A stretch of 64,000 nt of DNA from a bacterium. GTDB lineage: Bacteria; Patescibacteriota; CPR2; UBA1875; CAIMLA01. Below are positions 16,019-60,012 of this stretch, one piece after another; position 1 is the stretch's first letter, and each line of letters starts with the position of its first letter. Location of the stretch: positions 66,334 to 130,333 of the forward strand of contig JBAXUE010000002.1 in assembly GCA_037129835.1 (NCBI GenBank). The letters run 5' to 3'. Position numbers and translations under genes: made by a program. The notes under the pieces were generated by a model. It was not told the DNA's origin. It did not search any database and worked only from the letters and a program-made list of their open reading frames with translations.

Positions 16019-16102
16019 GTCATTCTGAACCGAGTGAAGAATCTAGGATTGTATCTGGATTCCTGCTTACCGCAGGCAAGCTTCTTTCCGACTCAGGATG
16101 AC
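16019..16102. repeat. GTCATYC hairpin-repeat element (two modules in inverted orientation)
   Basis: GTCATTCTGAACCGAGTGAAGAATC at 16019, plus at 16057-16102 the reverse complement of the 46-nt module found at 19816-19861 (43/46 identical). Confidence 0.85.
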
Positions 16103-16122
16103 GATTTGGGGGTGTTAAATTA

Positions 16123-18852
16123 TTATTTTGATACTAATTTCTCTGCTACTAGTTGGGTTATTCTCTTTGGAGGTTTATTTCTAGCTTTAAATGTTTCTTG
16201 AACCAAAAGATAGAATAAAGCGATAAATATTGCTATTGCCCAGGCAGAGAAGTTAAGCGGTGCCATGCCAGCGAATTTCTGGAGAAAAGGAACGTAAATT
16301 AATAAATTTACAAACATAAAAGACACGGCCAGTCCTATCCAGACTCTTTGTGAACCAAGTAGTTTCCATACTGGTTTTCTGGCTGACCGTATAGAAAAAG
16401 CGTTGGCATATTGGCACAGGGCCATGGTGGCATAAGTGACAGTAGTGGCCGCAATATATGTTTCGTTATTCGGAAAAGCACTCCCCCAACGCCAACCATT
16501 TAGATATCCATATATGCAAAATCCCGCCACCGAAAAAACACCCAGCATTATACCACTCCTTACGATGTAGTAGATAGTATCTGTACCAAAGAGGATATCC
16601 TTTTTGTCTCTTGGCGGTTTTGACATCACATCATCCTCTTCTATATCGCCTGCAAGTGCGAGAGCCGGAAAAGCCTCTGCGCAGAGGTCGATTAATAGTA
16701 TTTGGATAACAAAAATCGGAGGCAAGCCGATAACTAGCCCAAAAACAACAGCAGTGAACTCCGCCATATTTGCAGTAAAGACATATTTTGTTGCTTTTTT
16801 GATATTGTCATAGACGATTCTGCCCTCTTTTACCGCCCAAACAATAGAAGAAAAACTGTCGTTCAGCGAAACCATTTCTGCAGCTTCTTTGGTAACATCT
16901 GTTCCTGTCAGCCCCATCGCTACGCCAATATCCGAGGTCTTTAGAGCCGGAGCGTCATTGACGCCATCGCCTGTGACCGAGACGATATTTCCATGTGCTT
17001 GTAGTACTTTCACTAGCCGCAGCTTGTGGATTGGGTCTACCCGAGAGAATATTACATCTCCAGTTTCGATAATCTGATATAGTTCATCGTCTTTCAATTG
17101 ATTTAGTTCATTACCGTCGATGACGCGCGGATCTATGTTCAGCTTGATTCTCTTACCTACGGCTGCTGCTGTCAGGCCATAGTCGCCAGTCGCCATTATT
17201 ATCTTTATTCCAGCTTCTTTAGCGATTCTGACAGTTTCTGCTACATCTTCTCTTGGTGGATCGATAATACCAAGAAGTCCTAAGAAAATCAGGTCAGAAT
17301 CGATTGTACTGCCATCCATAGGCTTATAGGCAGAGGCTATTACTCTCAGCGCATCCTTGGAATATTCGTCATTTGTTTTTTCGATATCTTTTCTATCAGC
17401 TGTAGTTAGTTCGACTGCTTTGCCACCCTTAAGTATTTTTGTACATTTTTGTAAGATAACCGCAGGCGCCCCTTTGACGTATACCGTCTTTTCACCTTTG
17501 TAGTCGACTGCCTTGGCCATGAATTTTCGTTCTGAAGTAAAGGGTATTTCCTCTACACTTTTCGCTTCCCTCTGCATCGTATAAGTATCTAGTCCTGCCT
17601 TTTCTGCTGCCACAAGCAGAGCGATCTCGGTTGAGTCACCGATATAATCTGGTTTGTGATGATTTTTTGTATCGACTTCGGCATTATTGGAAATAGTTAC
17701 AGCTTGAAACAATATATTAGTTTCATCCAGACAGCTTCTGTTGCACAGTTTTCCTTCACGGGTGATTTCCCCGTCGAGACTATATCCCACGCCCTTTATA
17801 TGATAATTTTCGTTATTAAAGTAAATCTCTTTTACGGTCATCTGGTTCTTGGTTAGGGTGCCTGTTTTGTCAGTAATGATGTAGTTTGCCTCACCTAGGG
17901 TTTCCACTGCCGAAAGTCTGCGGATAGCAGCCTTTCTTCTGGTCATTTTTTGGATGCCGATCGCAAGTGCGATAGACACCGTGGCTGGTAAACCCTCAGG
18001 GACAAGAGAAGATGCTACTCCGATGGCAAAACGAAAAGATTCTAGTGCGTCAAAGTGACCCTTTGCTACTGTATCGACTACGAGCAGGATGAGAACGACC
18101 CAGAAGGTTGCTTTGGCTACAGTCTTGGCAATCCGGTCTATCTCTATTTGTAGCGGTGATTTTGATACCTTTTGGGTCGAGGTTATTTTGGCAATTTTAC
18201 CAAAGCTAGTTTCCATTCCGGTGGATACCACCACACCGATACCGTTACCAGAGATTACGTCAGTTCCCATAAATACAGAGCCTGTTACATCGACTACGTT
18301 TCTCTCGTTCTCCTCTGTTACCATCGCTACTTTGGATTGTGTTTCAGATTCTCCTGTAAGTGCTGCATCATTCGTTTCTAACTCATTTGCAGATATTAGC
18401 CGGATGTCTGCTGGTATCTTCATTCCCTCGGAAAGAACAATAATGTCACCGGGTACGATATCCATGGCGTCGATAGTCTGGCGGTCATTGTCTCTGATAA
18501 CGGTTGCAGACTGAGCGACAAATTTCTTAAGAGCGTCTATCGCTTTATCAGCTTTGTATTCTTGGAAAAAACCAATAGTGCTATTGGCAATCACAACTAA
18601 AAAGATGACAATTGCATCTTTAGGTGCTCCTAGAATATATGCGAGACCGGCGGCCGTCAGAAGAACTATCGCTAGAAGGTCAGTGAATTGGACAAGAAAT
18701 TTGACTATATATGGAGTTCGTTTTTGCTGTACTAGCTTATTGTGGCCGTATTTATTGAGACGCGTTGTAACTTCTGCGCTCGAAAGACCTTTGTCAGTCG
18801 TCTTTAGAGTATCTAATACTTTAGTAATATCGTCATAGAGCAATGAATTCAT
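16123..18852 (-). CDS. P2-type cation-transporting P-type ATPase (Ca2+/SERCA-PMCA-like)
   Basis: TGES, PEGLPA, DKTGTLT, TGDGVNDAPAL, and 10-TM topology. Confidence 0.9.
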   Translation of the reverse strand: MNSLLYDDITKVLDTLKTTDKGLSSAEVTTRLNKYGHNKLVQQKRTPYIVKFLVQFTDLLAIVLLTAAGLAYILGAPKDAIVIFLVVIANSTIGFFQEYKADKAIDALKKFVAQSATVIRDNDRQTIDAMDIVPGDIIVLSEGMKIPADIRLISANELETNDAALTGESETQSKVAMVTEENERNVVDVTGSVFMGTDVISGNGIGVVVSTGMETSFGKIAKITSTQKVSKSPLQIEIDRIAKTVAKATFWVVLILLVVDTVAKGHFDALESFRFAIGVASSLVPEGLPATVSIALAIGIQKMTRRKAAIRRLSAVETLGEANYIITDKTGTLTKNQMTVKEIYFNNENYHIKGVGYSLDGEITREGKLCNRSCLDETNILFQAVTISNNAEVDTKNHHKPDYIGDSTEIALLVAAEKAGLDTYTMQREAKSVEEIPFTSERKFMAKAVDYKGEKTVYVKGAPAVILQKCTKILKGGKAVELTTADRKDIEKTNDEYSKDALRVIASAYKPMDGSTIDSDLIFLGLLGIIDPPREDVAETVRIAKEAGIKIIMATGDYGLTAAAVGKRIKLNIDPRVIDGNELNQLKDDELYQIIETGDVIFSRVDPIHKLRLVKVLQAHGNIVSVTGDGVNDAPALKTSDIGVAMGLTGTDVTKEAAEMVSLNDSFSSIVWAVKEGRIVYDNIKKATKYVFTANMAEFTAVVFGLVIGLPPIFVIQILLIDLCAEAFPALALAGDIEEDDVMSKPPRDKKDILFGTDTIYYIVRSGIMLGVFSVAGFCIYGYLNGWRWGSAFPNNETYIAATTVTYATMALCQYANAFSIRSARKPVWKLLGSQRVWIGLAVSFMFVNLLIYVPFLQKFAGMAPLNFSAWAIAIFIALFYLLVQETFKARNKPPKRITQLVAEKLVSK

Positions 18853-18967
18853 AAATATATTTTATGCTATATATAGATAATAATGAAGAGAAATAAATAC
18901 AAATGGAGAAGGTCCGCGCCGGGAAGACGCTTTATATAGCTACCTTCTCGTTGCGGACCTCTTGGAC

Positions 18968-19342
18968 CTAGTCTTCGACCTCATCGATCCCGAGCATCGC
19001 TCTCGCGACTTCGATATCGGGTGCCAGGTCGAAGTTGTTGGTGTACTTCACCAACTTCTTAGAGACCTTCTCGTCCTCGGGGACTACGATCACAAACGGA
19101 ATGTGATCATTCATCAGGTACCGACCAAAGCTGTAGATACGGCCGATAGCCGCGCTACAAAGCTTGGTGACCATTGCGAGGTCGAGAATGACTCCGGCCT
19201 TGCGGGCCTTTATCAGAGTCTTGTCGAACTCGAGTCGGAGAACCGGCTCGACACTGTCGTCGAGATTTCCTCCGAGCTTCAGGATCACGGCCTTGTGGCC
19301 GTTACCTGCTTCGAACTTTTCGATACTGTGTACACAATGCAT
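18968..19342 (-). CDS. STAS-domain protein (anti-sigma-antagonist fold), in G+C-rich islet
   Basis: 124 aa with the pattern VILKLGGNLD...EPVLRLEFDKTLIKARKAGVILDLAMVTKLCSAAIG typical of SpoIIAA/STAS. G+C clearly above its neighbours. Confidence 0.6.
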   Translation of the reverse strand: MHCVHSIEKFEAGNGHKAVILKLGGNLDDSVEPVLRLEFDKTLIKARKAGVILDLAMVTKLCSAAIGRIYSFGRYLMNDHIPFVIVVPEDEKVSKKLVKYTNNFDLAPDIEVARAMLGIDEVED

Positions 19343-19351
19343 ATATCCCCC

Positions 19352-19666
19352 TCAGTCGGTTTCTAGTATTGCCGGGTTTTCGGAAAAGAACCATGAACCC
19401 CACAGCTCTCTCTTGACACCTACTTGCAGCGAATGTACCCACATTCCCCCTATGGGGATTTCGAAAGAGGGAAAGAAATCGAGTTCGATCTCTCCCTGCC
19501 AAACCACTTTCTCACGGTCAACGATATCGTAGATGACAAGTGAGTCACCGGTCTGGAGCAAGTGCAGGCCATCATAGCCGCCTTGCCTTCCTTCTTCTTC
19601 GAAGGCCCAGAAACCTCCTTCGGTTCCGGTCTCGAAGTAGAAATGTAACGTACCCACAAGTTTCAT
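19352..19666 (-). CDS. hypothetical protein (104 aa), in G+C-rich islet
   Basis: ATG at 19666 is preceded by GGGAGGTGA. The longer listed ORF (to 19768) lacks an SD. There is a 9-nt gap to the STAS gene. Confidence 0.55.
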   Translation of the reverse strand: MKLVGTLHFYFETGTEGGFWAFEEEGRQGGYDGLHLLQTGDSLVIYDIVDREKVVWQGEIELDFFPSFEIPIGGMWVHSLQVGVKRELWGSWFFSENPAILETD

Positions 19667-19759
19667 GTGGCTCACCTCCCAAACGATGTTATCGTGATTG
19701 AGACAAAGAGGATTATACAACATAATGAGTGTTCTGTAAAGATAAACATATACTCCCCA

Positions 19760-19861
19760 GTCATCCATGGCCCGCTTTCGTCATCCTTGCGAACGCGAGG
19801 GTCTCTTTTGGCAACGTCATCCTGAGTCGAAACGAAGCTTGCCTGCGGTAAGCAGGGATCC
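19760..19861 (+). repeat. three tandem GTCATCC modules
   Basis: GTCATCC starts at 19760, 19780 and 19816. The last module contains the hairpin CCTGCGGTAAGCAGG. Confidence 0.85.
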
Positions 19862-20234
19862 ATGTCCACTCTCCTTATCGTTCGAATTCTAATGAGAACT
19901 ACAGATACAGGTTATATGTAGTTTTCATAGGATCTACGTAATCCAACCATCAGTTCGAAAAGAAAGAGAGTAAAGTAACGAAGTTATAATAAATAACTTC
20001 CGGTATCGGCTTGTTGTTATTTATTATATTTGAGCTACTGCAACGAATGATACTTTAAAGAATCTGTTAGGTTGGGCTTTTTGCACCACTTTTATTAAAA
20101 AAGTGGCATATATTATAATATAACGTTTAAAAGATATTCGCTAAAGTCGTAATTGCTCGACCTCGAAGATAGTCGAGTACACGGTACCAAGGCGATTTTT
20201 CATTGGGATTAACGCTTAAATATACCGCCCCTTT

Positions 20235-20330
20235 GTCATCCCTGGTCGCACTTGTCCTCCAGTAGCTTGTTAGCGAAGTAGGAACCCCAGTCTGCCCGAG
20301 CCGTACGCTCGTGTCGGCCAGGGGGATCTC
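20235..20330 (+). repeat. GTCATCCCTGG...CCAGGGGGATCTC module with ~55-nt insert
   Basis: Same ends as the short modules at 21275 and 34750-34779. The internal AGTAGC..GCGAAG..AAC resembles 21328-21343. Confidence 0.75.
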
Positions 20331-20331
20331 T

Positions 20332-20619
20332 CTAGTTCCCTTTTATAAATTCCAAAAGTTTCCTTTTAGTTTCCTCTGGGTCATTCGTATATATAAAGAT
20401 ATACTGTCTCGTCGTATTCCCACGGACGACGCATTTAAACCCACTATCGATGTCGAGAAGCTTGATGTTGCGTATTCCCCTGCCGATAACCTTGATTTCA
20501 CCGAGAGAAATCTTACTCACTTCTGGATATTTGGATGCAGCATCGACAAAATCCTCCGCAGCATCGATGATGGTGGTGTGACTGCCGGCATATTTGCTGC
20601 CAGAGCGGTGCGGACTCAT
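20332..20619 (-). CDS. hypothetical protein (95 aa)
   Basis: Its start overlaps the upstream peptidase stop by 4 nt (ATGA). No family assigned with confidence. Confidence 0.55.
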   Translation of the reverse strand: MSPHRSGSKYAGSHTTIIDAAEDFVDAASKYPEVSKISLGEIKVIGRGIRNIKLLDIDSGFKCVVRGNTTRQYIFIYTNDPEETKRKLLEFIKGN

Positions 20620-21254
20620 TTCTTATTCTCTCTGGCCTTCTCCCACCGTATTTCTAGCTCTTGTTTTACTTCAGTCTCGAAATCCAAAATTGATATGCCG
20701 TATACTTTATTAAAATCCTTTGCAAAGCCCTTTTCTGTCATATCTGGGCCCATATATTTGATCATTTCTAGTAGCTTATCTTTACCGTAGTCTCGGACTA
20801 ACTTGTTTACCATCAGGATTCCCCAGCGATATGTTTGCTGATCACAGCTAGAATAATGCTTTGCACAGACATTTTCGTCAGTTTCTACTGGGAGATATGT
20901 TTTCTGTCCCGCCATGTGTTCGGCTAGTCCCTCGACAAACCAAATAGGCTCCCCGTTGTATCTTCCGACGATATGATCAAAGTACCAGTGGCTCATCTCG
21001 TGGTGGACTACTTTCCAAAAATCCCCCTTTTTATGCGGGGTGATGTCTTCCAAAACACTTTCGTCGATAAAGGCCAGTCCCCTGCTATGCGTAGTCGCCC
21101 TGACCCAGTCCTCTGTTTTCCTACCTGTGAATTCGTCCATCTCAGCCCTAGTAAATAGAAACTTTATCGGCGGATCAGGGACTTTATCAGCATCGGTGAG
21201 CTCGAAGAACTCTCGACACAGTTTTTGTATTTCTTTTATCTTCTTTGTATTCAT
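20616..21254 (-). CDS. Peptidase_MA-like HExxH zinc-metallopeptidase-fold protein
   Basis: VVHHEMSHWYF followed about 20 aa later by WFVEGLAEH (gluzincin-type third ligand). No signal peptide. Paralog of 56359..56931. Confidence 0.65.
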   Translation of the reverse strand: MNTKKIKEIQKLCREFFELTDADKVPDPPIKFLFTRAEMDEFTGRKTEDWVRATTHSRGLAFIDESVLEDITPHKKGDFWKVVHHEMSHWYFDHIVGRYNGEPIWFVEGLAEHMAGQKTYLPVETDENVCAKHYSSCDQQTYRWGILMVNKLVRDYGKDKLLEMIKYMGPDMTEKGFAKDFNKVYGISILDFETEVKQELEIRWEKARENKK

Positions 21255-21274
21255 AATTACTTTTCCTCTCCTGT

Positions 21275-21343
21275 GTCATCCCTGGCCACAAACCAGGGAT
21301 CTCCTGCTTATTGTTCGAAGATCGGCAGTAGCCGAAGCGAGAA
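21275..21343 (+). repeat. GTCATCCCTGGCCACAAACCAGGGATCTC hairpin module plus tail
   Basis: 6-bp stem CCCTGG/CCAGGG. Near-identical copy in reverse orientation at 34750-34779. Confidence 0.85.
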
Positions 21344-21369
21344 CTAAAAAATAGCCTCTTGGTACTAGT

Positions 21370-22356
21370 TTATACCTCGCTAATTACGTCAAAGCCCTTG
21401 AAACTACCAGTTATGGCAAGGCCAATTATTTTGCCGTTTGTTAGGTGTTTTTCTCGCATTTTTCCAGCGATTTCATTAATAGTTGCGCCAGAACCGACGG
21501 CATCATCTATTATCAAGATATTTTTGTATTTACTGTTATCTTCTACCACGAATGTTTTTCTAGCATTTTCTATACGGTCCTCAAGTTTATTGAGAGTTTT
21601 CTGGGGTACTATCACTTGAGTTTTTATCTTTACGATACCTATCGTTCGAATGTGCAGATTTAGCTCTTTCTCCAGCTCTTTCATAAACTGAAGTTCACGT
21701 TTCACGGTAGGCTGAACAAAAGCCACCCCGTCTACATTCTTGTCATGTATCAGCTTCATAATCTGCGGTTTGATACTATCCACCAGATCATCGATGAGCT
21801 CCCTATTTTGGCTTTGTTTAGAATATAGTAGTAGTTGACCCAGGCGAGTTTTACCAAATCTTTCGATACTATAAAAATCGAGATAATATAGGTTGTCTAC
21901 ATTCACTTGTTCGAAACTAGTTCGAAGCTTGTCTATGCCAGATATCAAACCATTTTTTGTGTATTTCAGATACTTTTCGAGTGTTTTGATATACTCCACA
22001 GCTGTTTTTGTGATGTCTAGATGGTTTTTCTGAGTCCAGTATGCGAAACCCTCCCATCCAGTTTTCATTTCGCCAGCAGGCGTAATAATGAGGTAGTTTT
22101 TGTCTATAGTATTGATTATTTTTCTATCAACATTAAGACCGTCTAGGGTTTTGCCAGCCTCACCAGACTCACTTAGTGAATAATACACCTTGGGAGGCGT
22201 GCCACTCTTTACTAGGGCACCATTTTCTATCAGATTCTTGAGCTGTTTGTGAATAGCCTGTTCTGATATATCAAACTCAACAACCAATTCCTTGGGAGTT
22301 GCTTGTTTGTGTTCTGAGATGTATCTGATTATATTTTTTGAGGTATCTGTTTTCAT
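21370..22356 (-). CDS. winged-HTH plus ComF/GntX-like phosphoribosyltransferase-domain protein
   Basis: N-terminal IIRYISEHKQATPKELVVEFDISEQAIHKQLKNLIENGAL (wHTH). C-terminal PRTase signature NILIIDDAVGSGATINEI, preceded by ComF-like FVQPT...Q..L....R..N spacing. Confidence 0.65.
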   Translation of the reverse strand: MKTDTSKNIIRYISEHKQATPKELVVEFDISEQAIHKQLKNLIENGALVKSGTPPKVYYSLSESGEAGKTLDGLNVDRKIINTIDKNYLIITPAGEMKTGWEGFAYWTQKNHLDITKTAVEYIKTLEKYLKYTKNGLISGIDKLRTSFEQVNVDNLYYLDFYSIERFGKTRLGQLLLYSKQSQNRELIDDLVDSIKPQIMKLIHDKNVDGVAFVQPTVKRELQFMKELEKELNLHIRTIGIVKIKTQVIVPQKTLNKLEDRIENARKTFVVEDNSKYKNILIIDDAVGSGATINEIAGKMREKHLTNGKIIGLAITGSFKGFDVISEV

Positions 22357-22431
22357 AGTAAGATTATATATGGTTTATGGTTTAGTGTCAACTATAAACT
22401 ATAAACTATTAATCAAATAATATTTCTGGTC

Positions 22432-22617
22432 TTATCGTATTACCCCTTCTCTTTTCTCGGCTTCTTCAAGGATTTCGTTGATTCCTCCATCAGATACGAG
22501 GAATTTGAAGGGCTGTATCAGCCTCTCGCCTTTTTTGGTGATGACTGTAGCAGTTTCATTCTTCATATTTACCTTTACTACTGTGACTTGGTTCTCAAAA
22601 TAATCAAATACTGTCAT
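22432..22617 (-). CDS. hypothetical protein (61 aa)
   Basis: ORF 8 nt downstream of the DUF2130 gene on the same strand. No recognisable motif. Confidence 0.4.
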   Translation of the reverse strand: MTVFDYFENQVTVVKVNMKNETATVITKKGERLIQPFKFLVSDGGINEILEEAEKREGVIR

Positions 22618-22625: not shown

Positions 22626-24428
22626 TTACTTCTTATCGAGTATTTTTACATTTTTTTTAGCATAGTCAGCAGAGAGCATTTTGATCCCCGTATCTTTAAA
22701 AGAAACTCGAATTTCATCATCAGATATTCCCTCTACTTCGCCTATTCCGAAATCAGGATGACTGATAAGATCCCCAACTTCCAAGAAAGTTTCCGACTCT
22801 TCATCGATGTGTTCTACCACAGGTTCTTCGTCTGACCTATCTTCTACTCCTTTAGTATTTCCACTAAATATCGCTCGAAGTATTTTTTCTTCTGACGACT
22901 GAATAGCTTTTTCCTCTTCTACAGAAACAACTGTTTTTTCTACTTCTGTAACAGGTTTCTGGAAGTCATCTCCACCAGGAAGCTCTAGTGCCTTTATCTC
23001 AGGTAGGGCTATGTGACCACCAATATCACCATACATTCCTACAGTATTTGTGAGTACTCTGCTAAGCTGCTTTTCTCTCTCACACCATATCTTTTCGAAA
23101 GCGTTTCGCTCTTTGCGTATACCACTTTCCATAGCTCCAAAAGCCTCTACTATGGCCTCTACCCTTTGTTTAAACTCATTGCCCGTAAGGTATGTATATA
23201 GGTAGTCCATCTTGTCGTTCTTGTTGACTGCCAAGGCCTTCTCTCTATAGACATCCACCAGGCCTTTTCTCAGCACTGTAGCGAGTGCAATAGCATATTT
23301 TAACTCACATACCCAAATCTTTTCTATTTGTACGAATCCATGAGCATCTCCAGGCATAGCTGCTGTTACTATCACTCCGATATCTGCCTTTATAGCCCTC
23401 ATATCTTCTTTTAACTTATCTACCCAACCTGCACTCCAAGACTTGGTTTGCTTGGATTCCCAAGCTATTTTGCCACACAGAGCACCGGCTTTGTTTTGTA
23501 CTAGCTGTACCACATCAGCACCGTTTACACCCTTTGGTACTGGCGCGATAGCGTCAAAAGGAAAAGCGTCGGTTAGCACTTGTTCTAGCTCGAGCTCCTG
23601 AACTTCGCCTTGGGTTTGCATGGAGCCTTGCTCCAGCTTCCTAGCTAGATCGTCCTTTGCCCTGCTGACATTCGATAGCTTCATCTCTAGCTCAGCAATC
23701 TTTTTGTGCTGTTGCTCTTCGGCCTTTCTACCCGCTTCTTCTTGAATCTTCTGACGCTCCTCGTCTAGCTGTCTCATCTTCTCTAGCTCAAAGCTCTGCT
23801 TGTCTTCCTCTAGGGTAATCTTTTGCTTTCGAAGTTCCAGCTCTTTTTCCTGAGCTTTACGGAGCTTCTCGTCCTTTTCATTCATTTGCTCTTGGAAACT
23901 ACGTTTCTCTAGCTCCAGCTCTTTTTGAGTTTCGTCGGCTAGCTCTTTTTTGAGCTCTAGGCGATAGGCCTCAGTCTTCTCGGCGTATTTCTTCTCGACT
24001 TCGAGCTCTATCTTGATTTTTTCCTCTTCTAGCCTAGTCTTTTCTTTTCTGAGCTCTATTTCACTCTCTTGAGCTTTTTCGAGCTTTTCATTTTTTTCCA
24101 AAATTAACTGCTCAAAATTATGTTTTTCTAGCTCTAGCTCTTTTTTTGCCTCTATTGATAATTCTTTTTTGAGTTCTAGCCGATAATTTTCTATCTTTTC
24201 GGCATACTTTATCTCAGCCTCTAGTTCTATCTTGGTTTTCTCTTTTTCTATCTCAGATTCTCTGGTGGCCAGAAGCCTATTAGTCTGCTCTAGCTCATCT
24301 TTTAGCTTTTGCTGTTCACTACTTAGCTCTTTGCGAACCTTTAGTTCCATCTGCTCTTTTAGGATGTCGTCGATGTCTATATCCCAACCGCATTTTGGGC
24401 ACTTAATGTTTTGTTCTGAATCTGTCAT
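22626..24428 (-). CDS. DUF2130-like coiled-coil protein with internal 73-aa tandem duplication and C-terminal Tudor/CarD-like tail
   Basis: N-terminal zinc-ribbon IKCPKCGWDIDID, long E/K coiled coil, conserved C-half (GADVVQLV..., IGVIVTAAMP). The tail VGDLISHPDFGIGEVEGISDDEIRVSF resembles small beta-barrel DNA/RNAP-binding domains. Confidence 0.65.
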   Translation of the reverse strand: MTDSEQNIKCPKCGWDIDIDDILKEQMELKVRKELSSEQQKLKDELEQTNRLLATRESEIEKEKTKIELEAEIKYAEKIENYRLELKKELSIEAKKELELEKHNFEQLILEKNEKLEKAQESEIELRKEKTRLEEEKIKIELEVEKKYAEKTEAYRLELKKELADETQKELELEKRSFQEQMNEKDEKLRKAQEKELELRKQKITLEEDKQSFELEKMRQLDEERQKIQEEAGRKAEEQQHKKIAELEMKLSNVSRAKDDLARKLEQGSMQTQGEVQELELEQVLTDAFPFDAIAPVPKGVNGADVVQLVQNKAGALCGKIAWESKQTKSWSAGWVDKLKEDMRAIKADIGVIVTAAMPGDAHGFVQIEKIWVCELKYAIALATVLRKGLVDVYREKALAVNKNDKMDYLYTYLTGNEFKQRVEAIVEAFGAMESGIRKERNAFEKIWCEREKQLSRVLTNTVGMYGDIGGHIALPEIKALELPGGDDFQKPVTEVEKTVVSVEEEKAIQSSEEKILRAIFSGNTKGVEDRSDEEPVVEHIDEESETFLEVGDLISHPDFGIGEVEGISDDEIRVSFKDTGIKMLSADYAKKNVKILDKK

Positions 24429-33044: not shown

Positions 33045-33073
33045 ATTCTACTCTCCTTTTGTGCTTATCGCAA
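33045..33073 (-). promoter_or_regulatory. putative sigma-70 promoter of the Z1 operon
   Basis: On the - strand: TTGCGA-17 nt-TAGAAT, about 27 nt upstream of the Z1 ATG. The -35 overlaps the small palindrome TGCTT..AAGCA. Confidence 0.4.
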
Positions 33074-33109
33074 GCATAAATTCGGTTTGACGGCTCTAGG
33101 CATCGGATA

Positions 33110-33941: not shown

Positions 33942-34661
33942 CTATTTCAAATCACGTAATTCCTCTATCACTCCGACTTTATTAAGAATGGGTATCATTT
34001 CGGAGCTACCTTCATAATTACTATAGTAGAAAGTTCCACCGATTTCGTACCATCTTTTAAATGGTTTCCCTTTCTCTGGAGTGAACAAAAAATGTGTCCA
34101 AAGTCTGTAGTCTAGCATGTCGATGTGATTTGTCTCGACATGTAGAAATGAGTGCGGCTTCAACACGCCTAGTGAGTTCTCTGCTATCCCCATCGGTGCT
34201 GGCGGGTCATCATCTTGAGGTATATTACCCCCTACAATATCCTCGACACTGGTATAGTGATTACTTGAATCATTTATAATATAGGCGTCATAGAAGCCAG
34301 ACTCTTTTTCGTCAAAGACGATTGCAATGTAGAGTCCCTTGTTATGTTTTCTGATTTTGTCCCACTCTTTCTGTTCTTCTATCTCTGGACATATCATCTT
34401 GGCACTGCATTTAGGGCATGGATGACTAGCTGGCCAGATGTGATACTTTTCGTCATGACAATATGGGCATAGATTCACTAGAGACTGAAAGTATTTCTCT
34501 GGATCCCACGGCACATCCCAAGCCTTGGTAGTGACTTCTACTAATATCTTTCTTCTATCACAGACACAAGTCCGCGTTTCCTGATCGGCACAGCGGCCAA
34601 AACCAGCAATAGTCTTTTTTTGATAATTACACTTTGTGCATTTGTATAACTTGTGTGTCAT
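33942..34661 (-). CDS. hypothetical multi-zinc-ribbon protein (239 aa)
   Basis: Start moved to the ATG at 34661, because the listed 5' extension translates hairpin repeats. Cys pairs: CTKC, CVCD, CPYC, CPKC. Confidence 0.55.
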   Translation of the reverse strand: MTHKLYKCTKCNYQKKTIAGFGRCADQETRTCVCDRRKILVEVTTKAWDVPWDPEKYFQSLVNLCPYCHDEKYHIWPASHPCPKCSAKMICPEIEEQKEWDKIRKHNKGLYIAIVFDEKESGFYDAYIINDSSNHYTSVEDIVGGNIPQDDDPPAPMGIAENSLGVLKPHSFLHVETNHIDMLDYRLWTHFLFTPEKGKPFKRWYEIGGTFYYSNYEGSSEMIPILNKVGVIEELRDLK

Positions 34662-34702
34662 ATTTGCAATATACGCTCGTTTTGTGCCTGGGGCAAGACC
34701 CA

Positions 34703-34779
34703 GGAGGTCATCCTTACGAAAGTAAGGATGACCTCCGGAGGGTAAGAAAGAGATCCCTGGGTTTGTGACCAGGGATGAC
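34703..34779. repeat. two GTCATCC hairpin modules
   Basis: GGAGGTCATCCTTACGAAAGTAAGGATGACCTCC (14-bp stem) and GAGATCCCTGGGTTTGTGACCAGGGATGAC (reverse copy of the 21275 module). Confidence 0.9.
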
Positions 34780-34976
34780 AACGGGTGTTCCCACGAAAAA
34801 TAACTCAGTCCGCAGACCGACACTTTGAGAAATATGTATGCTGTAGCTCGGCTACTAAAAGTATTTTTAAAAGAGAGTTGTTATTTTTCTTGAACTTAAC
34901 TCCATTTTCTTTCAAGAGAAAATGGATAATAAATAATTAATAAATTTTTAGTTAGAATAAATTGGTATATTGCGAA

Positions 34977-35546
34977 TTAATGTCCGCCGTAGACAGTGAA
35001 GCCTTTTTGTTTTAGCTCTTCGGCGAGCTTTATCTCGGCCTTTTTTGCTTCTTCTCTATTTTCTATCTTTCCTATCTTGCCGTAGAGGTCTGGGCGGAGC
35101 TTTGGATTGTCTGCCTTTCGGACCTTTACTGATGAGTTCAGCCCTGCCATGTGTTGCTCCAGTCGTATTTCTGGATCATAGATACTTTGCCCGATATATA
35201 TTTTCTTCTCGTTGTTATCTAGTTCGATAGCATATACTTGCCAAAAATCATTCTGGACCATGGGTCCAGCGATAACCATATATTTTTTTGCTTCGAGAGC
35301 GACGATAACCGCTTTTGCGGCCTCTATCGCCTCTTCGGCAGTATCATACTCTGGTAATTCTTTTGTCCATTTGGTCAGATTAGCGGGGTGACGTTCTTTG
35401 CGAACGCTAGTCACAAACTTTTCAAAGGCTTGCTGGTGATTGCTCGTGCCATATCCGACAAATACTTTTTTCTTACCTTGGTCTATTTCAAATACGTTTA
35501 CTATGTATTTATTATCTTCCATTTTTTTGGTCTCCTGTAGCGTCAT
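34977..35546 (-). CDS. GIY-YIG-like domain protein
   Basis: The C-half WQVYAIELDNNEKKIYIGQSIYDPEIRLEQH fits GIY-YIG spacing. The N-half has no assignment. Confidence 0.5.
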   Translation of the reverse strand: MTLQETKKMEDNKYIVNVFEIDQGKKKVFVGYGTSNHQQAFEKFVTSVRKERHPANLTKWTKELPEYDTAEEAIEAAKAVIVALEAKKYMVIAGPMVQNDFWQVYAIELDNNEKKIYIGQSIYDPEIRLEQHMAGLNSSVKVRKADNPKLRPDLYGKIGKIENREEAKKAEIKLAEELKQKGFTVYGGH

Positions 35547-35577
35547 TTTACTCCTATTTTGTGCTTAGAGCAAGGGA

Positions 35578-36651
35578 TTATTTATCCCAAACGCAGCTAC
35601 TCCCAAAGTGTCCGTGCTTTGCGGTTTCTAGATACATTGGCTTTTTTAGTTTTAGAAAACTGATGATTCCCCGAGGGGTCAAGTCGTACTCGTTCGATCC
35701 CAGTAGGTTTACCTCGGTTCTGTTATCAATAATAGCGATGGCCATCACCGGCTCTGCGACACCGATACTATAAGCAAGCTTCACGAGCACTTCATGGGCA
35801 TTTTCTTTGCGGAGATAGTCTACGGCGATACGGCGCGCCATATAGGCAGCGCTTCTGTCTACCTTCGTGGCGTCTTTGCCACTAAAACAGCCACCTCCTA
35901 TGGGAATCTGAGGACCGTAATTGTCTACTGCTAGCTTGCGACCGGTGAGACCAGTGTCGGCGGTAAAGCCTCCTACTACAAATTCCCCTGTCGGGTTAAT
36001 GTGAATATGTTTTGGTTCAAGTGTTTCCGCTAATATTCTCAGGGGTGTAAAGTCTGCGCCTTCAAGATGCTGGGCACTGATGACTACTGTGTCTACTTTA
36101 CCATTTTCACCCAACGTTACTTGACTTTTCGCATCTGGACCGAAACCTTTCGGTAAATTCTTCATCAGTTGTCTGGCTAAATATAGCTCCTGCGGGATCA
36201 TTTCTTCGTTTTCATCGCAGGCATATCCGACCATGATTCCTTGGTCCCCCGCCCCACCAGTATCTACTCCTTGGGCGATTTCTGGGCTTTGATGAACGAT
36301 ATTTATGTGTATCTCGAGTTCGTCAGAATATCCGATTTCTGAATAAATATTTTGTACAATATTTTTGACGTCTACTTTTGCACATGATGTCACTTCTCCG
36401 GTGATATATATGTGCCCATGACCTCCCATCGTCTCTATCGCTACCCTACTTTCTGGGTCTTGTCTTAGATATTCGTCTAGTAATCCGTCGGATATTTGGT
36501 CGCAGACTTTATCGGGGTGTCCAGGGCTGACGCACTCGGCTGTCCGTATCCCCTTCTTGCTATAATATTCTACTTTTTCTTTTCGCGAGTTTATCGCCGT
36601 CATCGCTTCTTTCACTACTTCCTCCTTTGTCTTACCATGGGTATCGATCAT
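35578..36651 (-). CDS. metK: S-adenosylmethionine synthetase
   Basis: GHPDKVCDQISD, GAGDQGIMVGYA, GGGCFSGKDATKVDRSAAY. Confidence 0.95.
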   Translation of the reverse strand: MIDTHGKTKEEVVKEAMTAINSRKEKVEYYSKKGIRTAECVSPGHPDKVCDQISDGLLDEYLRQDPESRVAIETMGGHGHIYITGEVTSCAKVDVKNIVQNIYSEIGYSDELEIHINIVHQSPEIAQGVDTGGAGDQGIMVGYACDENEEMIPQELYLARQLMKNLPKGFGPDAKSQVTLGENGKVDTVVISAQHLEGADFTPLRILAETLEPKHIHINPTGEFVVGGFTADTGLTGRKLAVDNYGPQIPIGGGCFSGKDATKVDRSAAYMARRIAVDYLRKENAHEVLVKLAYSIGVAEPVMAIAIIDNRTEVNLLGSNEYDLTPRGIISFLKLKKPMYLETAKHGHFGSSCVWDK

Positions 36652-36668
36652 AAATAATAGTTCTTTTG

Positions 36669-36818
36669 TTATTTCTTCCTTCTTTCTTTTTCACATCTAT
36701 CAATATAATTAATAGTTACTTCTGCAATTGTTTCTGGTGTTTCATTTAGCACATCAGTCAGGTATCCTATCCCGAATCGAATTTCTTGTTTTTCTTTTTC
36801 TGTTAGATACATAAACAT
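36669..36818 (-). CDS. possible small leader ORF (49 aa) upstream of metK
   Basis: ATG at 36818 (MFMYLTEKEK...), 17 nt before the metK start. Weak SD and no homology recognised. Confidence 0.3.
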   Translation of the reverse strand: MFMYLTEKEKQEIRFGIGYLTDVLNETPETIAEVTINYIDRCEKERRKK

Positions 36819-37174
36819 CCCTTTCTTTTCTTTCTTTTCTTTTGAAAAATCATTAGGTAGCCTCAGCTGCCCGACTATCAACGATTGCCAGAAATTGCGT
36901 TAAACGAATTTCTTAATGAGTTGAAGGAGTCGATTTTCCTGAACCTGGCGCCACCTGCTTTCAAGAGGAGGTGGCAATTAATAAAATTAATCTGCCGTAA
37001 TCTATAACTATTTAACTACTTATTTTGATACCTTTGTCTTTCGTCACAAAGGTATCGCCAAAAGACTCTTTTCATGCGGACTCACTGCGGTTCACCGCAA
37101 TGTCTGATAATATTTTGTTTTCAGAAACATCGTTGTCATTGAATCAACTTTCATCAAGTTAGTTATTTACCAAT

Positions 37175-37350
37175 CAAAAAATCTTTCCATTTGGAAAGAT
37201 AAGTTCGACCTTTGAGTTTTCACTCCTTATCGTTCCGCATTTGCGGCTAGCATTGGCACCCATTTGGTGTGGGTTGCCGGCAGGTACCGCCGTCGCGACG
37301 CTATGTCGGTCAGGCATCGGGCTAGTTCCCTATCTGCACTCTTGATATAT
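37175..37350 (-). promoter_or_regulatory. SAM-I (S-box) riboswitch with intrinsic terminator
   Basis: The - strand reads TATCAAGAG..AGATAGGGAACTAGCCCGATG..GCCGGCAACCC..GGTGCCAATGCTAGCCG..AACGATAAGGAG, matching S-box conserved blocks. Terminator ATCTTTCC-AAAT-GGAAAGAT+T6 at 37200-37175. Extended -10 TGATATAAT at 37373-37365. metK lies downstream. Confidence 0.85.
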
Positions 37351-37370
37351 TTGATTGTAGATATATTATA

Positions 37371-37940
37371 TCACATCTTTGATTTTCTCGTTTCGGTAAG
37401 TAGCCTTTCATATTCGTCTATTATATTGCTATCTAGTTTTGTTTTCAGCACTCTTAGTATTTCTTCGTGATACCAGAGTCTTTCTTCTGGAGTGGAGTTA
37501 AAGTTTTTTCCAGCTTCTTCGCCTACTAATTTCTTGTCGTCTAATAGGTTTCTCATATTATGAATTTTGTCTGCGGCACACACCATCAGAGACTCTACTC
37601 TGTCGTTTTCCAGATTCTCAATATAGGCATCTTTTCTGACTTTCCATGGCAGTTTCTCTTTGCCATCTGATTTCTTTTCAGTAACGCCCATAACTATCTC
37701 ACAGACATCTGGTCCAAAATCTCTGGTAAGCTCCTCCGGAGTGTATTCTGAGTCTTCTATCGTATCGTGAAGTAGCCCGGCTACTATGGTATTTTCGTCA
37801 TCGGTGTAGTTTGACAAGATAATAGCGACAGCAAAAGGATGAATGATATATGGAATGGCTACGTCTGATTTTCTTAGTTGATCTCGGTGGCAGACTGCTG
37901 CTACCTTTAGGGCTTTTTCGATCTTTGGTGTATATTTCAT
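37371..37940 (-). CDS. HD-domain (p)ppGpp hydrolase-like protein (small alarmone hydrolase type)
   Basis: AAVCHRDQLRK..IPYIIHPFAVAIIL...GLLHDTIEDS is typical of the SpoT/RelA HD hydrolase domain. 189 aa, stand-alone. Confidence 0.8.
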   Translation of the reverse strand: MKYTPKIEKALKVAAVCHRDQLRKSDVAIPYIIHPFAVAIILSNYTDDENTIVAGLLHDTIEDSEYTPEELTRDFGPDVCEIVMGVTEKKSDGKEKLPWKVRKDAYIENLENDRVESLMVCAADKIHNMRNLLDDKKLVGEEAGKNFNSTPEERLWYHEEILRVLKTKLDSNIIDEYERLLTETRKSKM

Positions 37941-48554: not shown

Positions 48555-48556
48555 GA

Positions 48557-56949: not shown

Positions 56950-58038
56950 TTAATTGATTCTATATACCATACCACCAATATGCTTAATTTTGCCAGATAT
57001 TTCCATAATGGTTATAGCAGAGCTTATTTCACTTTGGGAGAGCCCGGCTTTTTTTGAAATCTCGTCAATGTGTTTTGGTTCTAGTCTTAGCACTTCGATA
57101 ATTGTTTTTTCTGTTTTATTGCTACCAACTGCTTGGCGCATCTCGGAAACTACTTCAGGGCAAGAAAACCCAAATTCATCATAGACGTCTTGAACACTGG
57201 TAAGGACATGAGCTCCAGATTTGATCAGGTTGTTTGTTCCAATACTGGCTAAACTAAATATATTTCCAGGAACGGCAAAAACTTCTCTGTTCTGGTTCAG
57301 TGCCGAAAGCGCAGTGATGAGGCTTCCAGAGCTCTCTGCTGCTTCGGTAACGATGAGACCCTGAGATATACCGCTAATGATTCGGTTTCTGGCTGGGAAG
57401 TTTTGTTTTAATGGAGGAGTGTCGAATGGATATTCAGAGATTATTGCTCCGTTACCGATGATTTCGCGAGATAATCTAAAGTTGCTGCTCGGATAGATCT
57501 GATTCAGGCCGCAGCCGATAACCGCAATAGTCTGCCCACCGCCAGATAGGGCTCCTTTGTGAGCGGCAGTATCGATGCCAATTGCTAGCCCACTAACGAC
57601 TGTCACACCTCCCATGGCAAGTTCGCTGGTAATCTTTTCTGTGACGCGGAGGCCATAGTCAGAGGGTCTTCTACTGCCTACTACGCCGATACATAACTGA
57701 TTTAGCTTGGCTGTGCCCTTTTTGTATAGAATAAATGGAGGATCGTAAATCTGTTTCAACAGTTCGGGGTAGTCATTTTCAAAAATAAAGACAGGCTCTA
57801 TATTATTTTGTTTAAGTTCGTGGAGAACGTTTTCTGGTTTGTAGTTCTCTTTTGAGAATATGAATTCTTTGAGACATCGCTTGCTTAGTTTGAGAGCTCT
57901 TAGCTTGCTATCGGGTAGCTCGAACAAATTATTTATGGGAGCGTCTAAGGCGAAAACCTCAAGAAACAGAGAGGCAGTGAATCGAGCATTTCTACCTAGT
58001 GTAAGCCAATATATGTAGTCTTCAATATTCTTTTCCAC
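56950..58038 (-). CDS. dprA: DNA-processing protein DprA
   Basis: GVVGSRRPSDYG and SGLAIGIDTAAHKGAL, plus a C-terminal wHTH. Start set to GTG at 58038 (GGAGGGG upstream). The listed start at 58095 is TTG and overlaps a + strand promoter. Confidence 0.88.
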   Translation of the reverse strand: MEKNIEDYIYWLTLGRNARFTASLFLEVFALDAPINNLFELPDSKLRALKLSKRCLKEFIFSKENYKPENVLHELKQNNIEPVFIFENDYPELLKQIYDPPFILYKKGTAKLNQLCIGVVGSRRPSDYGLRVTEKITSELAMGGVTVVSGLAIGIDTAAHKGALSGGGQTIAVIGCGLNQIYPSSNFRLSREIIGNGAIISEYPFDTPPLKQNFPARNRIISGISQGLIVTEAAESSGSLITALSALNQNREVFAVPGNIFSLASIGTNNLIKSGAHVLTSVQDVYDEFGFSCPEVVSEMRQAVGSNKTEKTIIEVLRLEPKHIDEISKKAGLSQSEISSAITIMEISGKIKHIGGMVYRIN

Positions 58039-58056
58039 AACCCCTCCAAAAAACAC

Positions 58057-58085
58057 TTGACAAAAGTAGCCAACAGTGCTAGAAT
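58057..58085 (+). promoter_or_regulatory. near-consensus sigma-70 promoter TTGACA-17 nt-TAGAAT
   Basis: Read directly. It points into the 58.09-58.34 kb non-coding gap. Confidence 0.55.
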
Positions 58086-58091
58086 AAATAG

Positions 58092-58341
58092 TCAACCTAA
58101 ATCAGGATGACATTTGACAATAAGTTTCTCTAGGTAAACGCCAGTTATGGCGAGTGTCCTATCAATGAGTAAGGCCTTAAACACCCTCCTTTAAGCTTAC
58201 TTGTTGGTAGGGTTCTCCCCGTAACCGCCAGCCAATATTTTGGGCTAGGTAAAGTCTTCGGATCGAGTTACACTAACGGGAGAACTTTGAAACAAAAGTA
58301 AGGGAGTCGTATTTATACGGCTCCCTTACTTTATTATATTT
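58092..58341 (+). ncRNA. candidate ~250-nt ncRNA of unknown class
   Basis: Bounded by the promoter above and a 17-bp-stem terminator (AAGTAAGGGAGTCGTAT/ATACGGCTCCCTTACTT plus a T-rich tail). Internal hairpins: CGCCA-GTTA-TGGCG, AGTAAG..CTTAAA-CACCCTCC-TTTAAG-CTTACT, and a UUCG loop at 58254-58261. No credible ORF. G+C-richer than its flanks. Confidence 0.4.
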
Positions 58342-58375
58342 AAGTGTTTATGACTAGTGGACAAGGAAAAATTAA

Positions 58376-59344
58376 CTATTCTTTAACTATTTTCACAACA
58401 TTAATTTTCGGGGTTACTTTTACCACTACAGGTTGCTTTATTTTTGGTAGGCTCACATCACTTCCCTCTCGCACTTCAGCTGTGGCAAAGATGTTATTAG
58501 ATTCTTTCGGTAATACTCTCTCTCGGATAAACGCCAGTCTTTCTGGGTCTAAAGAGTCAGGATCTACAATTGCTGCTACCATACTGTCACAAAAATCTTC
58601 AGCAGCAGAATGGATTGCATATTCGCTGATACACCTTGATGGATCTTTGGGTTTAAAATACAAAGTAAGGCCACCAGGTGTTGTTATGCCTTCTGGGACG
58701 TGTTCCCAGCCAAAATCTTTCTGCCATTTATCTAGTTGTTTAGAGGCCAAACTGTGAGAAAGCTCATGAATTAATGTCCCTTCAAAGTTTGATGTAGCCG
58801 ATATTCGGTGTTGTTTGTCTTCTAACGCAGGAGGATAAAGCTTAATTGCACCTTCGCCTGTTTCTGCGTAACCATTTAGTGGCTCATTAGTGTATTTATT
58901 AATCTCGTTTTTGTCATCAATTAGAATATATTTAACGGTATTAAGAGCTTCGCCACCTAAGATATTAGAGAATTTCTCTAATATGGATTTTAGCTGAAAT
59001 ATTCTCTTGTCTTCTATTTTTTGACTAAAACTGTATAATTCAAGGCTGTACTCACCTACTTTAATCGATACTTGTTGTTCTGGTATGCCTTTTTCTCTCC
59101 ACTTATCCTGTAACCACCAATTATTACTAATAATTTCTTCTTTTGCTTTTTCTTCAATATTTTCTTGAGAAACTGTAATATCTGCCACTCGATCACTACC
59201 ATCTTCTAGAAATTCAAATTTAATGTCGTTTATTTTTTCATACTCTCGATCTTTCGGTAATTGGAATTCAGAAGCCTTGATATTAGAAATAATTTTGTGA
59301 CTTTCTTTTTTCATTTCTTGAAAATCTACTAGTTGTTTTTCCAT
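58376..59344 (-). CDS. hypothetical HExxH protein (322 aa)
   Basis: GTLIHELSHSLA motif. Acidic N-half, no signal peptide. Confidence 0.55.
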   Translation of the reverse strand: MEKQLVDFQEMKKESHKIISNIKASEFQLPKDREYEKINDIKFEFLEDGSDRVADITVSQENIEEKAKEEIISNNWWLQDKWREKGIPEQQVSIKVGEYSLELYSFSQKIEDKRIFQLKSILEKFSNILGGEALNTVKYILIDDKNEINKYTNEPLNGYAETGEGAIKLYPPALEDKQHRISATSNFEGTLIHELSHSLASKQLDKWQKDFGWEHVPEGITTPGGLTLYFKPKDPSRCISEYAIHSAAEDFCDSMVAAIVDPDSLDPERLAFIRERVLPKESNNIFATAEVREGSDVSLPKIKQPVVVKVTPKINVVKIVKE

Positions 59345-59383
59345 ATAAACCCTTAATCTTTTACTATTGCTGGATACTGTTAT

Positions 59384-59938
59384 TTAAATACTAATATGCT
59401 CTATGCCTTCTGCGAGGGCTTTTTCTATTTCTGACACTGTTTTTGTGACAACTTCTTGTGCAAGGGCCTCTTCATCTTTAGTAAATTTCTGTAACACAAA
59501 AGCTTCTGTGGGTATATTATCACATTCTTTTGTTTTGATTCCCATTCGAAACCTGGCAAATTCATCAGTGCCGATACACTCTATGATAGATTTAACACCT
59601 TTGTGTCCCGCAGAGCTACCACCTTGTCTGACTCTGACTACACCAAGCTCGAGATCGATATCGTCATAAGCGACCCAGAGATGTTCAGTATTAATATTAA
59701 AATAACTCATTACAGATTGTATAGCTTCTCCAGATAGGTTCATAAAAGTCTGAGGTTTAAGAAGTTTGATCTTTTCGCCACTTACTATTATTTCGCAGAT
59801 CTCAGCCTTGAACTTTTTCTCAAGCTTAAAATCACCGTCATATTTATCTGCTAGGTTATCAACCGTAGCGAAGCCGAAATTATGGCGTGTGCCGATATAT
59901 TCTTTTCCCGGATTACCAAGTCCAACGATTAGTTTCAT
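59384..59938 (-). CDS. pth: peptidyl-tRNA hydrolase
   Basis: MKLIVGLGNPGKEYIGTRHNFGF, GGSSAGHKGVKS. Confidence 0.95.
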   Translation of the reverse strand: MKLIVGLGNPGKEYIGTRHNFGFATVDNLADKYDGDFKLEKKFKAEICEIIVSGEKIKLLKPQTFMNLSGEAIQSVMSYFNINTEHLWVAYDDIDLELGVVRVRQGGSSAGHKGVKSIIECIGTDEFARFRMGIKTKECDNIPTEAFVLQKFTKDEEALAQEVVTKTVSEIEKALAEGIEHISI

Positions 59939-59957
59939 GGTTTATGTACTTTCCCCC

Positions 59958-60012
59958 GTCATGCTGAATTTATTTCAGTATCCCGAGATCCTGAATCGAG
60001 TTCAGGAAGACG
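59958..60012 (+). repeat. GTCATGCTGAA / CCTGAATCGAGTTCAGG hairpin-repeat module
   Basis: Related to the 16019 module (GTCATTCTGAACCGAG). Two short hairpins, lying between der and pth. Confidence 0.7.

Follow-up and report, generated by a model that had tools for sequence, protein, structure and literature searches.

Based on the collective evidence obtained here, the GTCATCC-headed hairpins dispersed through the intergenic DNA of a 64,000-nucleotide stretch of a patescibacterial genome (contig JBAXUE010000002.1; the whole stretch is called the window in the following) are understood as members of the CGTC-tagged superfamily of repetitive extragenic palindromes (REPs), that is, as short, non-coding and non-autonomous palindromic repeats. 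We put the probability of this assignment at about 80%. It is made because the tag, the base of the stem, the dimers and the genomic placement match the published definition of the class by Di Nocera, De Gregorio and Rocco (BMC Genomics 2013; PMC3733652), who distinguished the families CGTC-1 to CGTC-4. On this assignment the window family adds a lineage to a superfamily already known and is not a new kind of element. An earlier note on the window had described it as a dispersed hairpin family in intergenic DNA resembling REPs or miniature inverted-repeat transposable elements (MITEs), a description that fits the published superfamily. The nearest named relatives of the host's EngA protein are Candidatus Saccharibacteria metagenome-assembled genomes (65-71% amino-acid identity), and the genes of the window are tightly packed, nearly all of them on the minus strand.

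Ten clear modules and one decayed head, spread over six intergenic sites, make up the inventory of the window (Table 1). They follow a common plan in which an unpaired (C/T)GTC tag leads into a stem of 7-9 bp opening with A-T and T-A pairs, followed by a variable loop and a C(TC) tail. Pairs 3 and 4 of the stem are (C/T/G)-(G/A/T) and C-G; the upper stem and loop above them vary, the stem closes with G-R-A-T, and the module termini read GTCATYC and GRATC. The unpaired tail opens in nearly all modules with C, usually followed by TC, TA or CA. The base before GTC, read by eye in the 14 modules of the source contig, is C in six, T in six and another base in two. Loops of the short modules span 4-8 nt, and two long structured subfamilies of 45 and 94 nt exist besides. 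Folding of short modules against shuffled controls gave z values from -1.8 to -7.4, the latter for the palindrome at 34707-34732 (-15.8 kcal/mol). The published class is defined by a terminal CGTC tag (often TGTC; variant CCTC), a stem of 8-9 bp with "almost invariably" A-T residues in positions 1-2, loops of 4-5 nt with exceptions in some species, a short unpaired tail of consensus CCA, a predominance of HH dimers, defined as having the tags outside, and extragenic placement mainly between unidirectional or convergent ORFs (PMC3733652). The modules of the window agree with it in their CGTC or TGTC tag, the A-T/T-A start of the stem and the short tail beginning with C, as they do in forming HH dimers, often of unlike partners, in their intergenic placement between co-directional or convergent genes and in having no flanking transposase.

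Table 1. Hairpin modules of the window and the insertion at the engA-pth junction (positions are those of the window; R1, covariance model described in the text; z, folding against shuffled controls; RBS, ribosome binding site)
Feature	Position	Strand	Remarks
REP module GTCATTCTGAACCGAGTGAAGAATC	16019..16043	+	left half of tags-outside (HH) dimer; R1 27.9 bits
45-nt REP module GTCATCCTGAGTCGGAAAGAAGCTTGCCTGCGGTAAGCAGGAATC, tail CCA	16058..16102	-	right half of HH dimer
Decayed remnant	19760..19779	+	GTCATCC head alone, no hairpin; fold -1.4 kcal/mol, z 0
REP module GTCATCCTTGCGAACGCGAGGGTC	19780..19803	+	R1 29.6 bits
45-nt REP module, tail CCA	19816..19860	+	partner type of 16058-16102
Long-stem REP module, 94 nt	20235..20328	+	begins 3 nt past DUF2103 stop codon
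REP module GTCATCCCTGGCCACAAACCAGGGATC	21275..21301	+	z -4.15; 3' end of 1,181-nt insertion
Perfect palindrome GTCATCCTTAC-gaaa-GTAAGGATGAC	34707..34732		no strand; tag at each end
REP module GTCATCCCTGGTCACAAACCCAGGGATC	34752..34779	-	joined to ~170-nt block X (34780-34945); R1 match
REP module GTCATGCTGAATTTATTTCAGTATC	59958..59982	+	half of HH dimer between engA and pth; R1 match
REP module GTCTTCCTGAACTCGATTCAGGATC	59987..60011	-	other half of engA-pth HH dimer; R1 match
96-nt insertion	59941..60036	-	25 nt + HH dimer + 17 nt with RBS GGGGGAAAG (alignment A2)

All copies listed in the earlier note are present, subject to three corrections. The sites 16019-16102 and 59958-60011 each consist of two modules in inverted arrangement with the tags outside. 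The last copy ends at 60011 rather than 60012, and its head reads GTCTTCC instead of the GTCAT(C/T/G)C given as common to all, a mutated form of the canonical GTCATCC that stands at this place in the 94%-related strain L142. The three tandem modules proposed for 19760-19861 come down to two clear ones (19780-19803 and 19816-19860) preceded by a decayed, hairpin-less head at 19760-19779, the place of which is taken by an unrelated, diverged patch of 38 nt in strain L148. The hairpin type of 19780-19803 is found also in L143, L138 and L148. Just downstream of this trimer lies a near-consensus promoter (TTTACA-17-TATAAT; 19712-19740, minus strand), the 19816-19860 module being upstream of it, and a 25-codon ORF (MFIFTEHSLCCIILFVSITITSFGR; 19672-19750, minus strand) with a GGGGAG RBS precedes a 104-aa gene. 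Dimers of the HH type recur outside the window (L005 7895-7968; two in L131; L135; L138 8305-8358; L143 4710-4781 and 6926-6977), and the modules examined include none that form a dimer with the tags inside and a short spacer. Dimers usually combine unlike hairpin types, and modules are often found singly or in tandem arrays. The dimer at 16019-16102, placed between the stop of a P-type ATPase gene and the start of a DUF3467 gene, folds as a whole with -32.7 kcal/mol (z -4.0), and the stretch 16047-16103 matches 19815-19871 in inverted orientation over 57 nt (88% complementary). The 94-nt module at 20235 had been read as the 21275 module with an insertion. The two share the base of the stem, but the inner 37 nt of the former recur in L152, and the 94-nt module is therefore considered a representative of a long-stem subfamily rather than a private insertion. 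L152 also offers, at 5891-5951 on the minus strand, an ATTCCGG/CCGGAAT module whose loop encloses the 3' half of a long module of the CCCTGG type (GTCTGCCCGAGC...GTGTCGGCCAGGGATC), a nesting which suggests that REP loops may themselves serve as sites of insertion or extension.

Statistical support for the family comes from placement and from structure. The loose heptamer GTCATBC is not enriched in the window (25 occurrences vs 18 +/- 4.6 expected), and GTCATCC occurs 14 times on both strands (128 kb) as compared to ~5 by composition estimate, nine of the 14 falling in the listed intergenic sites; with these counts, a DNA uptake sequence was rejected as a candidate. All six sites are intergenic, against an intergenic share of ~8% of the window (P ~3e-7), and all lie between co-directional genes. 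The covariance model R1, built from eight short window modules (alignment A1), scores the modules at 27.9-31.8 bits, matches the palindrome at 34707-34732 on both strands, gives at most 13.1 bits elsewhere in the window and reveals no further modules there. Beyond the window, it finds three modules on the same contig at L005 7858-7968, ~1.7 kb past the window end, and copies in the related Saccharibacteria contigs L131, L135, L138, L142, L143, L148 and L152, the distribution among 10 relatives being patchy; L131, L138 and L143 are rich in REPs, and L130, L132, L136 and L137 have none. The scan that the earlier note had suggested thus extends the family past local duplications, the more so as the related canonical type occurs also on plasmids of four other phyla and, along with two hairpin types of the window, in at least 120 viral contigs. 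Over the stretch examined, about 83 kb of the 372,584-bp contig ERZ27300174:k141_20016 (the window and both extensions), 14 modules at seven sites were counted; the density is about one module per 6 kb. The eight training modules pair in 94.6% of stem cells, with a covariation score that 0 of 500 shuffles reached. When the set is enlarged to 28 distinct modules (alignment A3, fitted to the model), 20 of which were not used in training, 97.4% of stem cells pair, 44 cells are changed on both sides, and the covariation score is 0.596 vs 0.245 for shuffles (0/500 reach it) and at most 0.12 for slid controls. G1, T2 and C3 are invariant in all 28; A4, T5, the pair C7-G and the terminal ATC show little or no variation; pair 1 is A-U, and pair 2 U-A, in 26 modules each.

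Continuity between the published class and the window is seen also at the level of sequence. A CGTC REP of a sphingomonad (Novosphingobium), read by eye as CGTCATTGTGAGCGAAGCGAAGCAATCCA and present there in an HH dimer, has an apical core in common with the widespread canonical type, GTCATYCTGAGCGNAGCGAAGRATC(TC), and with module 16019; the three together connect the published class to the window. Module 16019 (GTCATTCTGAACCGAGTGAAGAATC) is identical to the canonical GTCATTCTGAGCGAAGCGAAGAATC in 21 of 25 positions. The host is among the differences from the published class: Saccharibacteria/Patescibacteria lie outside the five phyla reported so far (Proteobacteria, Chlorobi, Bacteroidetes, Spirochaetes and Thermotogae; PMC3733652), and many hairpin types are found here together at high density. 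Two previously named groups of repeats belong to the class according to the same paper, namely dRS3 of Neisseria (CGTC-1) and RPE-4 and RPE-6 of Rickettsia (CGTC-4 and CGTC-1, respectively). As in the Neisseria dRS3/NIME regions, the modules here cluster and border short blocks that differ between strains; unlike there, no filamentous prophage or Piv/IS110-type recombinase was seen, and block exchange is inferred from three strain comparisons only. A dRS3-like hairpin, ATTCCCGC...GCGGGAAT, is present in viral locus L049. The Rickettsia elements share with ours the setting of a reduced genome, but theirs are often in frame inside genes, whereas all copies here are intergenic. With the GTAG REPs and REPINs the family has in common the tagged hairpin, doublets folding into a larger hairpin (z -4.0), intergenic dispersal and covarying stems. 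The tag, however, is different: GTAG is found in none of the 28 distinct modules, in which GTC is followed by a paired AT, and neither a REP-associated tyrosine transposase (RAYT) nor another Y1 family is annotated in the ~83 kb. A more distant likeness concerns the Bpu elements of Cycas and Ginkgo mitochondria (PMC8297867), short interspersed hairpin repeats of 36 nt (AAGGTTATCCCTTTCCTGAGCGTAGCGAAGGGAAGG) in hundreds of copies. Their apical core CCTGAGCGNAGCGAAGG is common with the canonical bacterial and phage type, but they are organellar, have AAGG terminal direct repeats and lack both the GTC tag and the A-T/T-A stem base; the likeness may reflect a relation to the mainly alphaproteobacterial CGTC REPs, or convergence. 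A literature search by module sequence strings returned only primers and the Cycas Bpu paper, and in the top-ranked literature on Saccharibacteria, Patescibacteria or TM7 combined with REP or MITE the term "repetitive extragenic" was not found.

Hairpins of the same types are found also in many contigs of uncultured phages. The pattern GTCATYCTGANNNNNNNNAAGRATC occurs in at least 120 stretches of IMG/VR viral contigs; among the matches listed, the eight free bases are GCGNAGCG in 85 of 149, and covarying ACGNAGTG variants are present as well. Many other GTCAT-stem-ATC hairpins with unrelated stems accompany them at the same viral loci, and two hairpin types of the window itself recur in viral contigs, that of 19780-19803 in 20 stretches and the other in one. 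In the viral loci L010-L129, canonical GTCATYCTGAGCGNAGCGAAGRATC hairpins adjoin genes for major capsid, head-tail adaptor, portal, prohead protease and tail proteins, in one case (L024) 19 nt after the capsid stop. Among the matches listed, their orientation is unbiased (32 sense, 28 antisense), and their gene setting is co-directional in 60, convergent in 17 and divergent in 6 cases. The excess of convergent over divergent settings and the lack of orientation bias are as reported for REPs and are therefore counted in favour of the REP assignment. A Pfam scan of 130 ORFs beside canonical viral hairpins gave no recurrent transposase family among the 25 families listed. The canonical type is found, unannotated, on plasmids of Cyanobacteria, Bacteroidota, Acidobacteria and Alphaproteobacteria; cultured phage genomes hold essentially no canonical copies.

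The strong covariation of the stems could be explained also by hairpins that function as RNA of the host, in the protection of mRNA ends, the attenuation of transcription or the tuning of translation, and that are kept by selection without being mobile. Placement lends some plausibility to the idea, given that modules are situated between co-transcribed genes, in a 5' untranslated region (L005 7858-7968, after a TTGTTA-17-TATAAT promoter) and 3 nt past a stop codon (20235; L148), while the neighbours on phage contigs are capsid, adaptor, portal and tail genes; the REPs of E. coli, moreover, stabilise mRNA. We nevertheless consider it unlikely. The modules exhibit no orientation bias relative to transcription, a T-rich tract follows only one of them, one cluster is upstream of a promoter and hence outside the transcript, and a generic hairpin role leaves the invariant unpaired GTC tag unexplained. 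To this are added the strain comparisons described below, according to which presence and absence differ between near-identical strains, most relatives have almost no spacer at a junction filled in the window, and the same site holds different hairpins in different lineages. Specific RNA candidates were rejected individually: an intrinsic terminator, the only T-rich tract being that of 19783-19802, on the non-coding strand, with the other modules lacking a T-run; and a hammerhead-like ribozyme (CUGA...GAAAC), the core being incomplete, the orientation unbiased and an Rfam match lacking. Rfam gave nothing at gathering threshold in the window, no relevant match at E <= 10 in 15950-21450 and none on REP modules at E <= 5 in 34600-37450, and a tRNA scan (ARAGORN) gave nothing at the modules.

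Recent turnover of the REPs is evident from the comparison of strains, for which five near-identical contigs from other samples (L002, L003, L006, L007 and L009; 99.97-100% identical) are uninformative. The 96-nt insertion between engA and pth is present in the window and in L142 (94% EngA identity) and absent from L141, a contig from the same metagenome as L142 that has closely similar flanks and an EngA C-terminus 100% identical, and whose junction reads TAA-CC-ATG. The empty state is taken as ancestral because the spacer here measures only 2-17 nt in eight more distant relatives as well; L131 and L135 contain different HH dimers there. The AAC...AAC direct repeat that bounds the 96-nt indel, together with the resemblance of the dimers at 16019-16102 and 59958-60011 to terminal inverted repeats of ~14 nt (GTCATYCTGA...), would be in keeping with true MITEs, in which deletion derivatives of a DDE-type insertion sequence would have the tags-outside dimers as their inverted termini and would have formed a target-site duplication on insertion. 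This explanation is judged very improbable, for the polymorphic insert runs 25 and 17 nt past the supposed termini, the repeats at the two junctions compared are unequal (3 and 4 nt), no insertion sequence with such ends was found, and neither the frequent single modules and tandem arrays nor the usually unlike partners of dimers agree with it.

The second clean indel is seen against L146 (84-91% nucleotide identity), in which a 61-aa gene and a 212-aa gene overlap by ATGA. At this junction the window contains an insertion of 1,181 nt (~21255-22435), with ATGA at both ends, which comprises a promoter, an HTH/PRTase gene, REP 21275 and an RBS, all of it absent from L146. In L148, which is 96% identical to the window over 5 kb, a short-type REP follows the DUF2103 stop where the window has the 94-nt module, and past it comes a ~170-nt block 82% identical to block X of the window (34780-34945); the window, after its 94-nt module, has an unrelated 319-nt block in that place. 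Block X accordingly occupies two loci, in opposite orientations in the window and in L148 (1058-1226), and is joined to a different REP type at each. The L148 copy of it has an extra 19-nt GC hairpin, CCCGCCTGCGGCAGGCAGG, inserted. Eight relatives keep the gene order S11-HK-RR-(aspS)-scpA-scpB-rluB-S11-engA-pth (HK, histidine kinase; RR, response regulator), and REPs are found at different junctions of it among relatives; at the RR junction their position varies, before or after the promoter. Overall, close relatives (flanks 84-98% identical in nucleotides) differ in the presence of REPs, in hairpin type and in adjoining blocks. Together, these comparisons indicate that REPs were gained repeatedly and independently in the small number of permissive spacers that a compact genome offers, and that recombination took place around the modules.

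The earlier note had the copies concentrated at the borders of accessory segments. This is borne out by REP 21275, which ends the 1,181-nt insertion, and by the REP-adjoining blocks swapped in L148, but not by the copies residing in the core housekeeping junctions engA-pth and RR-aspS. Where borders are concerned, it must be asked whether the modules are recombination sites that bound exchangeable blocks, in the manner of dRS3/NIME or attC, and are used by a site-specific recombinase or phage integrase. The position of REP 21275 at the end of a gene insertion, the alternation of blocks X and Y directly after the REP in L148 and the window, and the affiliation of Neisseria dRS3 with the CGTC-1 REPs are consistent with such a role, as are two inverted near-identical pairs, of which 16058-16102/19816-19860 flank a 3.7-kb ATPase segment and 21275/34779 flank the 13.4-kb defence island. 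We regard this role as improbable. The breakpoints of the indels do not fall at the tags but at a distance of 17-25 nt from them, the 1,181-nt insertion has a REP on one border only, and inverted pairs are expected by chance when hairpin types are few. Precomputed Pfam annotations of the called genes in the ~83 kb include no transposase, integrase, recombinase or Y1/RAYT family, so that the association with a RAYT or other transposase envisaged in the earlier note found no support in them. An integron attC site as such was rejected, since the R''/R' boxes (RYYYAAC ... GTTRRRY) are not matched by the module termini and an integrase family is not annotated.

How CGTC-tagged REPs would multiply in this lineage is best considered from the distribution of constraint within the module. 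An unpaired tag and a stem base that do not vary, below an upper stem that is free to change, are what one expects of a protein binding to the foot of a hairpin. This is how RAYT and IS200-type Y1 enzymes recognise GTAG REPs, on single-stranded DNA. By analogy, a trans-acting enzyme recognising the invariant tag and the base of the stem would produce new copies on single-stranded DNA; its gene would lie elsewhere in the genome or on a phage. RAYT/IS200-type Y1-like recognition of the hairpin foot is put forward, tentatively, as the most likely route of copying; family identity and turnover follow directly from the comparisons, the manner of copying is what we infer. The short conserved cores might double as recombination breakpoints, by which intergenic blocks would become mosaics like those of the Neisseria dRS3/NIME regions. 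Modules inserted in operons would be part of the transcript, where they would behave as stable hairpins of a generic kind and might affect mRNA decay and translational coupling, but such effects at the RNA level would be secondary and not the reason for the existence of the modules. That the CGTC hairpins are still actively mobile, through an unrecognised enzyme common to Saccharibacteria and many uncultured phages, appears doubtful. A bolder variant of this idea would make the REP and the RBS together an adaptor, brought in with inserted DNA, by which the gene downstream regains its expression.

Several observations weigh against the understanding of the hairpins as CGTC-tagged REPs that spread by copying. 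The tails are mostly CTC or CTA as compared to the published CCA, which only the two 45-nt modules have, and the loops of 4-8 nt, in addition to the two long variants, exceed the published 4-5 nt. R1 gives no match on the Novosphingobium CGTC REP region, the model being too narrow. Annotations reveal no mobilising enzyme in the ~83 kb, and the examination covers just this part of the 372-kb contig. A donor copy of the 96-nt insert is absent from all sequences compared. Both clean indels carry sequence beyond the REPs, and their junction repeats are unequal (AAC, 3 nt; ATGA, 4 nt); microhomology-mediated indel of whole blocks, or recombination at REP cores, is thus a serious alternative. The mismatch test for the folding strand, G-T vs A-C, gave 4 vs 2 and is underpowered.

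Other features of the window deserve mention beside the REPs. A second hairpin family has covarying stems and the fixed loop CTCTTGAAAG (CTTTCAAGAG on the opposite strand), occurs in the window at 34885-34932 and 36934-36981 and elsewhere at L143 ~14659-14707 and 1004-1040 and L148 ~1185-1226, often adjoins REP modules and is without a T-run on either strand. A motif of 30 nt, reading CTTGC-N4-RGCACAAAA on the gene strand and followed by an RBS, stands directly 5' of three successive genes, those for a 66-aa protein, a 239-aa protein and a GIY-YIG protein (33045-33074, 34668-34697 and 35545-35574), and may be a shared 5' leader or operator. Within a 489-nt structured non-coding region 5' of a 70-aa ORF and metK (35578-36651), the segment 37224-37351 (minus strand) gives a full-length sub-threshold match to RF00162, the S-adenosylmethionine (SAM) riboswitch (30.8 bits vs gathering 44.4; E 2.9e-4), plausibly a divergent SAM-I riboswitch controlling metK. 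The low-GC defence island (~24-34 kb) contains two GmrSD genes, an EcoRI-like methylase and ResIII/Z1. Between the same small flanking genes, the window has a gene for a DUF2130 protein (22626-24428) and L146 one for an SRA_ScoMcrA-like protein (461-877); the two are alternative cassettes at the edge of the island.

Lastly, the findings have a practical side for metagenome annotation, in which the modules inflate or create spurious ORFs. The ORFs 15920..16201 (plus strand) and 19672..19869 (minus strand) read through modules, as the earlier note had said, and the same applies to the 5' end of 33942..34823, a gene that the source gene caller begins at 34661 (239 aa). Few non-coding elements of bacteria are as abundant as REPs; no mobilising enzyme is known for those of the CGTC class. 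The paper that defined the class described it as lacking a dedicated transposase and left open whether new copies still form (PMC3733652). The locus of the window places the CGTC class in Patescibacteria, and at high density in a very small, reduced genome. The strain pairs with clean insertions and swaps constitute material for working out REP movement, and the flux between co-occurring strains bears on how CGTC REPs move. If active mobility were true after all, the filled and empty strains (the window and L142 vs L141; L146; L148) would offer a direct route to the mechanism of mobilisation.

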